Positions 3,862 through 4,464 of a stretch of DNA of 4,464 bases are shown piece by piece; within the stretch, counting starts at the first letter, position 1; the number at the start of each line of letters is the position of its first letter. The position numbers are program-made. This DNA comes from a virus (Duplodnaviria; Heunggongvirae; Uroviricota; Caudoviricetes), in IMG/VR virus record IMGVR_UViG_2706794698_000005. The stretch is one strand, 5' to 3'.

Positions 3862-4464
3862 GCGAGATTTGAGACGAAGGTTGTTATTTGCACTGACACA
3901 ATATTGTGTGGGAATGTCTGACTCCTTACCATCTCCTGTTCTGTGATGTTGTTTTGTTGCAGTTCCAGTGCTCTTTTTTCAGCACCAGAATGGTGCATTG
4001 TCGGTCAGGTTACGTAGTGAACCTCTGGCAGGGGACTGATGATTCATCATTCTGGTGTTGTAAATATCTCTTCGGACAACTTACAAAATATTCTAAGCAA
4101 ACCCCGGGAACACACTCTTAACTGCCTTGGCTGGCGGTTTTTTGTACAGCGCTCGGTATGTGTGAGCTGGAAATCAGATTTTGCATGGACTGGAATCATG
4201 CTGTTATTTAGGGGCGAAGAACTGGCTTTTTCTTCCGCCTTCTCACCAGTAACGATTAGAAAAATAATGAAATGCCCCCCTCCGGGGAGGAGGACCGTAG
4301 AAAAAAGGACCCGCCAGCAAAAACATTGGGGATGAACAGCTTTCGCTACTCAGATTGCTGGCGGGTAAAGTTCCTCATGAATTAAGAATGCTACGCGATC
4401 TTTTTTAATGGAAATGAAAATTATTGTCAATTAGTCGTGCGTGTTTTTTCATACAATATTGGTA

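Follow-up and report, generated by a model that had tools for sequence, protein, structure and literature searches.

Sequence comparison, structure prediction and covariance modelling together indicate that the DNA directly 3' of the tRNA genes in the stretch analysed here (4,464 nt, referred to below as the window), which corresponds to the region of late control in a lambdoid E. coli prophage, encodes a conserved structured non-coding RNA of lambdoid (Rac-like) E. coli and Shigella prophages in the orientation of late transcription. The module occupies positions 3890-4144 on the plus strand, about 255 nt, and comparison with approximately 45 relatives divided it into four parts: a four-way junction, a long hairpin, an A/U-rich linker and an intrinsic terminator. 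The segment very probably represents an RNA structure under selection and not an operator or a gene, and it apparently belongs to an undescribed family of structured prophage RNAs located at a known hotspot for prophage sRNAs.

E. coli is the bacterium best searched for non-coding RNAs, yet Rfam contains no family for the module, and the literature searched does not mention it. It was detected in approximately 7% of complete E. coli genomes (398 of 5426, with the commonest subtype as query), its carriers including ETEC, EAEC and STEC strains and an LT-II toxin phage, and it is almost never annotated. Its range is the prophages of Escherichia and Shigella. The position of the module is that of a control point between the late/tRNA region and the lysis genes or, in some phages, the toxin genes. 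If it insulates or times the lysis genes, it would matter for spontaneous induction, for toxin release and for the stability of the prophage; if it acts in trans or as a decoy, it would represent a new type in the repertoire of prophage sRNAs that rewire host regulation.

Gene order of the late-control region

The window starts with a DnaB-like ORF (27-1520), followed by RusA (1520-1891) and a Q antiterminator gene of the PF06530 family (1860-2267). A promoter-like site, TTGACC-18-TATATT (2272-2301), is located directly 3' of the Q gene. The Rfam scan identified isrK/c4-a1b1 at 2295-2384, with a terminator at 2363-2384, and C4 antisense RNA at 2410-2493, and an ORF6N antirepressor-like fragment lies between C4 and the tRNA genes. 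An antirepressor control module resembling P1 immI occupies the place where the pR'/tR' short transcript would be expected (2272-2493). Two blocks of N (2647-2904 and 3270-3561) mask the start and the 3' end of the ORF6N gene, most of a tRNA-Ile gene, and any promoter that precedes the tRNA cluster.

Three tRNA genes on the plus strand, tRNA-Arg(UCU) (3629-3705), tRNA-Thr(UGU) (3708-3783) and tRNA-Gly(UCC) (3787-3861), were identified by ARAGORN, by the Rfam tRNA model and in the RefSeq annotation of the 99.8% identical VL40 locus, with the partly masked tRNA-Ile gene just 5' of tRNA-Arg. Positions 3562-4464 were present in nine complete E. coli genomes at 99.3-99.8% identity. VL40 carries a weak promoter-like site, TTTGCA-18-TATTAT, just before tRNA-Ile, and the genes that follow the segment in this genome encode a class II holin, the lysozyme RrrD and a lysis protein. 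The holin gene of VL40 starts about 80 nt past the end of the window, and the interval between tRNA-Gly and the holin gene is devoid of any annotation. A strong plus-strand terminator with a 10-bp stem and a T-run is located just before the holin start (6914-6940 of the VL40 locus L001), about 15-40 nt past the end of the window. With the terminator of the module itself, two plus-strand terminators therefore separate the tRNA genes from the lysis genes.

An earlier note on this DNA had suggested, by analogy with the layout of Stx phages, that the segment could hold a regulated toxin promoter. This suggestion was not borne out, since the genes that follow encode the holin, the RrrD lysozyme and the lysis protein and no toxin. 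The promoter-like site of the late region lies directly after Q (2272-2301), far 5' of the segment. No sigma-70-like promoter was found by a consensus scan inside 3862-4144, the spacer and the junction included; the two sigma-70-like sites in the scanned stretch were located within the tRNA genes (3775-3802) and downstream (4240-4268).

Fold, strand and coding potential of the module

A spacer of 28 nt (3862-3889), delimited by alignments, connects the 3' end of tRNA-Gly to the structured RNA on the plus strand; it is poorly conserved, with only a short UUGU motif common to the relatives. The first domain is a four-way junction (3890-3971, plus strand) that was identified in the minimum free energy (MFE) fold of the window, in the folds of the relatives and by compensatory changes. 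Its closing helix, GCACUG/CAGUGC (3890-3895 with 3966-3971), is invariant in the alignments and flanks three hairpins: arm 1 (3896-3909), with 5 bp and an AUAU loop, arm 2 (3910-3937) and arm 3 (3941-3962). A U6 tract (3974-3979), seen in the sequence and in the consensus structure, follows directly after the closing helix. This tract pairs with AAA at 4062-4064 in the base of the long hairpin, so that it offers no free terminator tail in that fold. A boxA/nut-like reading of UGCUCUUU (3969-3976) was considered and rejected, as the alignment showed that the motif is not conserved in other subtypes.

The second domain is a long hairpin of approximately 36 bp (3976-4064, plus strand), which was recognised as an inverted repeat, in the predicted folds, by RNAalifold and in the covariance-model alignment. 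Its 5' arm spans 3976-4011 and its 3' arm 4020-4064, and it includes an apical stem, AGGUU/AACCU (4007-4011 with 4020-4024), and a conserved unpaired bulge, UGGCAGG(GG) (4026-4034). In the window the hairpin contains five G-U pairs and two mismatches, C-U at 3996/4044 and U-U at 3979/4061. The A/U-rich linker that follows (4065-4119, plus strand) was defined by spacer alignment. The motif CUAAGCAAA (4093-4101), followed by CC-GG-AA-ACA, is common to the window and the other short-type relatives, and in long-type relatives the linker is enlarged by a structured domain of about 95-110 nt that GAGGUG/CACCUC closes. The distance from the hairpin to the terminator is 67-80 nt in the short type, to which the window belongs, and 157-170 nt in the long type.

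The module ends at an intrinsic terminator (4120-4143, plus strand), a G+C-rich hairpin followed by a U-tract that was predicted from the sequence by a terminator scan and is conserved in the relatives. The terminator reported in the earlier note is thus a genuine feature, with a stem formed by CTGCC (4122-4126) and GGCGG (4133-4137), a TTGGCT loop and T6 at 4138-4143, and A-U pairs extend the stem to 4120-4139. The arrangement CCGCC-loop-GGCGG-T7/8 was found after almost every relative, with its position maintained and its loop sequence variable. The terminator of the window is the weakest in the family, with a U-G pair in the stem, only U6 and a predicted energy of -8.1 kcal/mol.

Several analyses indicated that the fold is conserved. 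The same four-way junction was the MFE structure in 27 of 32 unique relatives, compared with five of 1280 shuffled sequences (0.4%), and the single-sequence MFE folds of the relatives, which require no alignment, had a mean z of -3.8. The fold of the window alone was modestly better than that of its shuffled versions (z -1.3 to -2.4). RNAalifold, applied to a plain MAFFT alignment, recovered the long hairpin; of the 47 pairs that it predicted, 10 were changed on both sides, including pairs of the closing helix and of arms 1 and 2.

For a covariance model that excluded the subtype of the window, 20 sequences were used, all of the commonest subtype. This model matched positions 3890-4064 of the window with 63.9 bits on the plus strand (E about 1e-15 to 1e-18) and 21 bits on the minus strand. 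In 690 kb of unrelated viral loci, it detected nothing except two previously missed copies in the locus L158. When 43 distinct sequences were aligned to the model, 95.8% of the cells were standard pairs and 35 of 72 pairs had changes on both sides, with compensatory changes in every junction helix; the covariation counts are somewhat inflated because the alignment was fitted to the model. Controls in which the alignment was slid gave 38-51% pairing and 8-14 pairs changed on both sides, and none of 500 shuffles attained the observed values of pairing and covariation. Helices 6 and 7, which form the long hairpin, were 97% paired. The plain MAFFT/RNAalifold analysis and the alignment-free folds agreed with the result from the model alignment.

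Such widespread compensatory changes point to selection on the fold. G-U was the commonest pair at 17 of the 72 paired positions, which fits an RNA transcribed from the plus strand and not a symmetric DNA site, and folding was better on the plus than on the minus strand. The higher plus-strand score of the covariance model likewise indicates this strand. Both arms of the long hairpin and the bulge are conserved in sequence beyond what pairing requires, which suggests a protein or RNA partner.

The palindromes that had drawn attention to the segment were re-examined against this fold. The perfect 14-bp palindrome ACACAATATTGTGT is present at 3896-3909, and the window contains no other perfect palindrome of 14 bp. 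The chance expectation of about 0.2 given for it was correct: shuffled windows contained 0.24 on average, and 21% of them had at least one, so that the palindrome is not significant by itself. The 13-bp palindrome TGATGATTCATCA at 4037-4049, also confirmed, sits within the 3' arm of the long hairpin. For odd palindromes of 13 bp, 0.9 are expected and the window contains three (426, 2963 and 4037), which places the one at 4037 at the level of chance; the closest relative, L019, has TGATAATGCATCA there, which differs by two bases.

A DNA-level operator, in which these palindromes would bind a repressor or other regulator of a nearby promoter, is very improbable. It could draw on the perfect 14-bp palindrome and on TGATGCATCA, a palindromic core of 10-13 bp in the 3' arm of the hairpin whose sequence is conserved. 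The 14-bp palindrome, however, occurs about once in four windows by chance, and among the relatives its sequence changes while its pairing is kept: ACACA/UGUGU in the window is replaced by GCGUA/UACGU or ACG/CGU, both sides of the arm are changed in 12 sequences, and the loop varies from 4 to 9 nt. Moreover, G-U pairs make the symmetry strand-specific. An operator of the lambda repressor type is expected to have a conserved half-site and an adjoining promoter, and neither was found. The comparison indicates that the 14-bp palindrome is an arm of an RNA four-way junction and not an operator. The two proposals of the earlier note consequently parted ways: a trailer or small RNA with its own terminator agrees with the conserved structured plus-strand RNA ending at the terminator, whereas a regulator-binding palindrome does not agree with an arm in which only the pairing, and not the half-site sequence, is conserved and which lies in a segment without any promoter-like site (3862-4144). 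One lesson is that a palindrome in the raw sequence invites interpretation as an operator even where it forms an arm of an RNA junction.

The segment is poor in ORFs, as had been stated. A database match to a conserved protein-coding gene would have spoken against a non-coding element, and none was found in Pfam for the four ORFs of the segment. A small protein gene or leader peptide, read from the ATG at 4039 behind the Shine-Dalgarno-like GGCAGGGG, is scarcely credible. The ATG and the first seven codons (MHHSGVV) are conserved, as is the purine-rich bulge 4-9 nt before the ATG, and in some genomes a hypothetical protein is annotated at this place by RefSeq. Beyond codon 8, however, the peptides are unrelated, they range from 16 to more than 95 aa among the relatives and shift frame through 1-nt indels, and the ORF of the window crosses the terminator. 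Neither length, frame, sequence conservation nor a family match was thus consistent with a protein-coding gene, and the seven codons are conserved because they are the 3' arm of the hairpin.

Distribution, proposed working and alternative explanations

With the window as query, a sensitive BLAST search identified segments of 68-78% identity in 233 of the 5426 complete E. coli genomes; the BLAST matches were nearly always unannotated and chromosomal. Among 50,697 phage records, two contained the segment, SerU-LTIIb (two copies) and vB_EcoS-683R6. An exact-pattern scan identified 119 IMG/VR loci and, among species representatives, E. coli and Shigella flexneri, with six matches in unrelated taxa that were treated as chance. 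A looser pattern, CAGTGC-N1-5-TTTTTTAC, gave mostly chance matches in IMG/VR; it served as a negative control and yielded L158.

In every annotated example the segment is located directly 3' of tRNA-Gly(UCC), usually with tRNA-Thr(UGU) before it, and a holin gene lies 550-750 nt 3' of the segment on the same strand. This position, 3' of tRNA-Gly(UCC) and 5' of the holin gene, was found in VL40, 504838, the DH5alpha record, 042, phage 683R6 and SerU-LTIIb. L158 contains a divergent copy of the module (2520-2855, 48 bits) that has its own terminator and lies 5' of tRNA-Thr/Gly, which shows that a tRNA-trailer position is not universal for the module. This copy is preceded by a DNA methylase gene and a promoter-like site, TTGAAA-16-TAATAT (2398-2425), so that independent transcription of the module may also occur.

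The window and the 504838-type prophage are homologous from the tRNA genes through 4146, and this homology ends at the terminator. The window and VL40 are 99.8% identical over 3562-4464, yet their Q genes are unrelated: the Q of the window belongs to PF06530, and the gene at the Q position of VL40 encodes a DUF1133 protein without a BLAST match to it. This identity despite unrelated Q genes, together with the homology stop at 4146, indicates that the tRNA genes, the segment and the terminator form one exchangeable module that is not tied to a particular Q or Q-binding site. A Q-utilisation site or pR' late promoter was likewise rejected as an identity for the segment, as that pair of elements lies far away at 2272-2384 and the module is independent of the type of Q.

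Some individual copies had further features. In L118 (3299-3380) and L060 (795-876), ARAGORN called an odd tRNA-like gene, a 'tRNA-Tyr' with anticodon AUA, which has a module copy on each side within a single late region. In L004, a minus-strand terminator (3331 to 3308) converges on the plus-strand terminator of the module.

We favour, with moderate confidence, a tRNA-trailer RNA that carries a terminator shielding the lysis genes and is processed to a stable RNA. The module would be co-transcribed with the tRNA genes as their 3' trailer, and unmodified RNA polymerase would halt at its terminator or at the second, stronger one before the holin gene; with these two terminators, transcription of the tRNA or leader region in a lysogen is proposed to stop short of the holin gene. 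After induction, Q-modified polymerase would pass both. Processing of the tRNA 3' end, and probably cutting of the long duplex by RNase III, would free a stable folded RNA whose conserved unpaired bulge and linker would be available to a protein or another RNA. The predicted conserved hairpin of about 36 bp is long enough for RNase III, which requires a duplex of about 20 bp or more. The insulator model does not account for a small hairpin, G(R)UG-UUGUAAA-CA(Y)C, which is an alternative to the base of the long hairpin in all subtypes but that of the window; this small hairpin hints at a conformational or regulatory switch.

Independent transcription of a trans-acting sRNA, dependent on Hfq or ProQ and with the linker or the bulge as its seed, is unlikely although it has precedents. 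Such an RNA would resemble EcOnc27/28 and PasD at the same 'moron' position, where prophage sRNAs have been documented (PMC4104026; bioRxiv 10.64898/2026.05.13.724894); the U-tailed terminator and the A/U-rich linker with its conserved CUAAGCAAA resemble the 3' modules of sRNAs, and the L158 copy 5' of the tRNA genes has the promoter-like site before it. In the window, however, no promoter-like site lies between tRNA-Gly and the junction, where just 28 nt of poorly conserved spacer are present, and pairing of the linker with the VL40 prophage region was no better than that of shuffled queries by RNAduplex. In addition, typical Hfq sRNAs do not resemble an RNA of 255-350 nt that is so heavily structured. 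A leader or attenuator acting in cis, in which alternative pairings would gate transcription or processing towards the lysis genes, is rather improbable. The structures that would compete are the closing helix with the U-tract, the long hairpin and the small 3' hairpin, of which the last co-varies perfectly (37 G/C, 7 A/U, none mixed) and would compete with pairing at the base of the long hairpin, in which GAUG variants produce mismatches; by sequence reading, CAGUGCU could pair either upstream, with GCACUG, or downstream, with AGCAC. The subtype of the window, however, lacks the CAYC partner, the terminator hairpin takes part in no alternative pairing, and there is no known ligand, protein or signal.

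The tRNA genes next to the module invite two further explanations. A decayed tRNA gene or recombination scar without present function would account for the proximity to a tRNA array, for the four-arm shape reminiscent of a cloverleaf and for the decayed tRNAs beside some copies, such as that in L079, but it is most improbable: the lengths of the arms and the loops are not tRNA-like, ARAGORN identified only the three upstream tRNAs, the Rfam tRNA model matched nothing in 3862-4464 even at E up to 10, and decay is at odds with compensatory changes so widespread as to imply selection on the fold. An identity as a tRNA was rejected on the same observations. More speculatively, and with a low probability, the module could represent a novel kind of structured, tRNA-associated phage RNA that is active in its own right, for instance as a tRNA-like decoy or sponge against tRNA-targeting nucleases or as a conformational, Q-independent switch that times lysis-gene expression. 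Either role would exceed that of a passive trailer with a terminator. As a decoy, it could protect the adjacent phage tRNAs or the translation apparatus of the host from defence nucleases. The trailer with a shielding terminator remains the reading that we prefer.

Comparison with known RNA families and prophage sRNAs

The Rfam covariance-model search that had been proposed as a check was run, and it returned no known family for the segment, either with Rfam 15 on the whole window (E up to 1) or on 3862-4464 (E up to 10); generic miRNA-precursor hairpins, far below threshold, were the only matches to the segment. No Rfam match to the segment was obtained for AsxR (RF02703), AgvB (RF02702), STnc100/PasD (RF02076) or Esr41 (RF02676), and none to the window for GOLLD or ROOL. 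A full-text literature search with sequence strings of the element matched no paper.

GOLLD and ROOL are conserved structured non-coding RNAs of about 600-800 nt, with functions that are unknown, which are found beside tRNA clusters in temperate phages, mainly of Firmicutes and other phyla. The module shares with them the position beside tRNA genes and a structured fold, but is much shorter (255-350 nt). Trailers of tRNA operons give rise to the RtT RNA of tyrT and to 3'ETS-leuZ; both follow immediately after tRNA genes in the same orientation, extend to the terminator of the operon and are released by tRNA processing as stable RNAs in their own right. The place of the module 3' of tRNA genes is similar, whereas its sequence and fold are unrelated to theirs and the L158 copy precedes the tRNA genes. 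The M3 RNA, which is induced by phi80 and is a classical substrate of RNase P, was considered because one relative occurs in a record labelled DH5alpha. It was rejected, as the prophage in this record is Rac-like and not phi80, and phi80 was absent among the phage matches.

Prophage sRNAs located between pR' or the tRNA genes and the lysis genes have been described (PMC4104026; bioRxiv 10.64898/2026.05.13.724894), including AsxR, AgvB and the EcOnc RNAs (PMC4104026), HnrS (PMC13502914) and the Pas RNAs (PMC8550237; bioRxiv 10.64898/2026.05.13.724894). The module occupies the same niche, from Q/pR', often after tRNA genes, to the holin gene, as AsxR, AgvB, EcOnc27/28, PasD/STnc100, PasA/PasC and HnrS, and like these moron-site sRNAs it is non-coding, has an intrinsic terminator and is restricted to Escherichia and Shigella prophages (PMC4104026; PMC13502914; bioRxiv 10.64898/2026.05.13.724894). 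No similarity of the module to the moron-site sRNAs tested was found, however, either in sequence or by covariance model. With the Sakai sRNA coordinates taken from table S2 of Tree 2014, no similarity to the loci of EcOnc03/28, EcOnc13/32, AsxR/EcOnc27, AgvB and HnrS was detected by BLAST, nhmmer or cmsearch, and the family profile (nhmmer) and cmsearch found nothing in Sakai Sp3, Sp5, Sp9 and Sp10. PasD/EcOnc13 in the Sp3 locus (L137) was not matched by the family model. In the HnrS loci L136 (EcOnc12) and L139 (EcOnc11), nhmmer and cmsearch found nothing, nor did BLAST of the segment against L136. The pasA and pasC loci of E2348/69 showed no BLAST similarity to a query that started at 4145 and was extended with VL40 sequence to the holin gene, which covers only the DNA downstream of the module. 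Size also sets the module apart, as it measures 255-350 nt and combines a four-way junction with a hairpin of 36 bp, compared with 51-66 nt for AsxR, AgvB, EcOnc03 and HnrS; other moron-site sRNAs (EcOnc27 and the Pas RNAs) reach 80-250 nt.

Lambda 6S RNA and StxS are small RNAs that arise at a late-region terminator which stops polymerase not modified by Q (PMC7547250). These RNAs start at pR' directly after Q, and here the pR'/tR'-like pair lies at 2272-2384, where isrK is located.

Two observations concern DNA that neighbours the module or occurs in its variants. The extra domain of the long type (L004, L006 and L002) contains CGGGAGGCACCCG, which is also found in Sakai Sp5 and Sp9 (L136 and L138), where it adjoins AsxR and EcOnc03. 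Downstream of the module, the minus strand of the window has a terminator-like hairpin (4295 to 4274) and, within 4309-4366, a perfect 12-bp inverted repeat, ACCCGCCAGCAA / TTGCTGGCGGGT, followed by CCUUUUUUC on the same strand. BLAST found no similarity between this layout (4274-4366) and the E2348/69 or Sakai loci; its arrangement is reminiscent of PasA/PasC/EcOnc32, which run antisense to the late genes beside the holin gene and whose terminator stem carries GCCAGCA.
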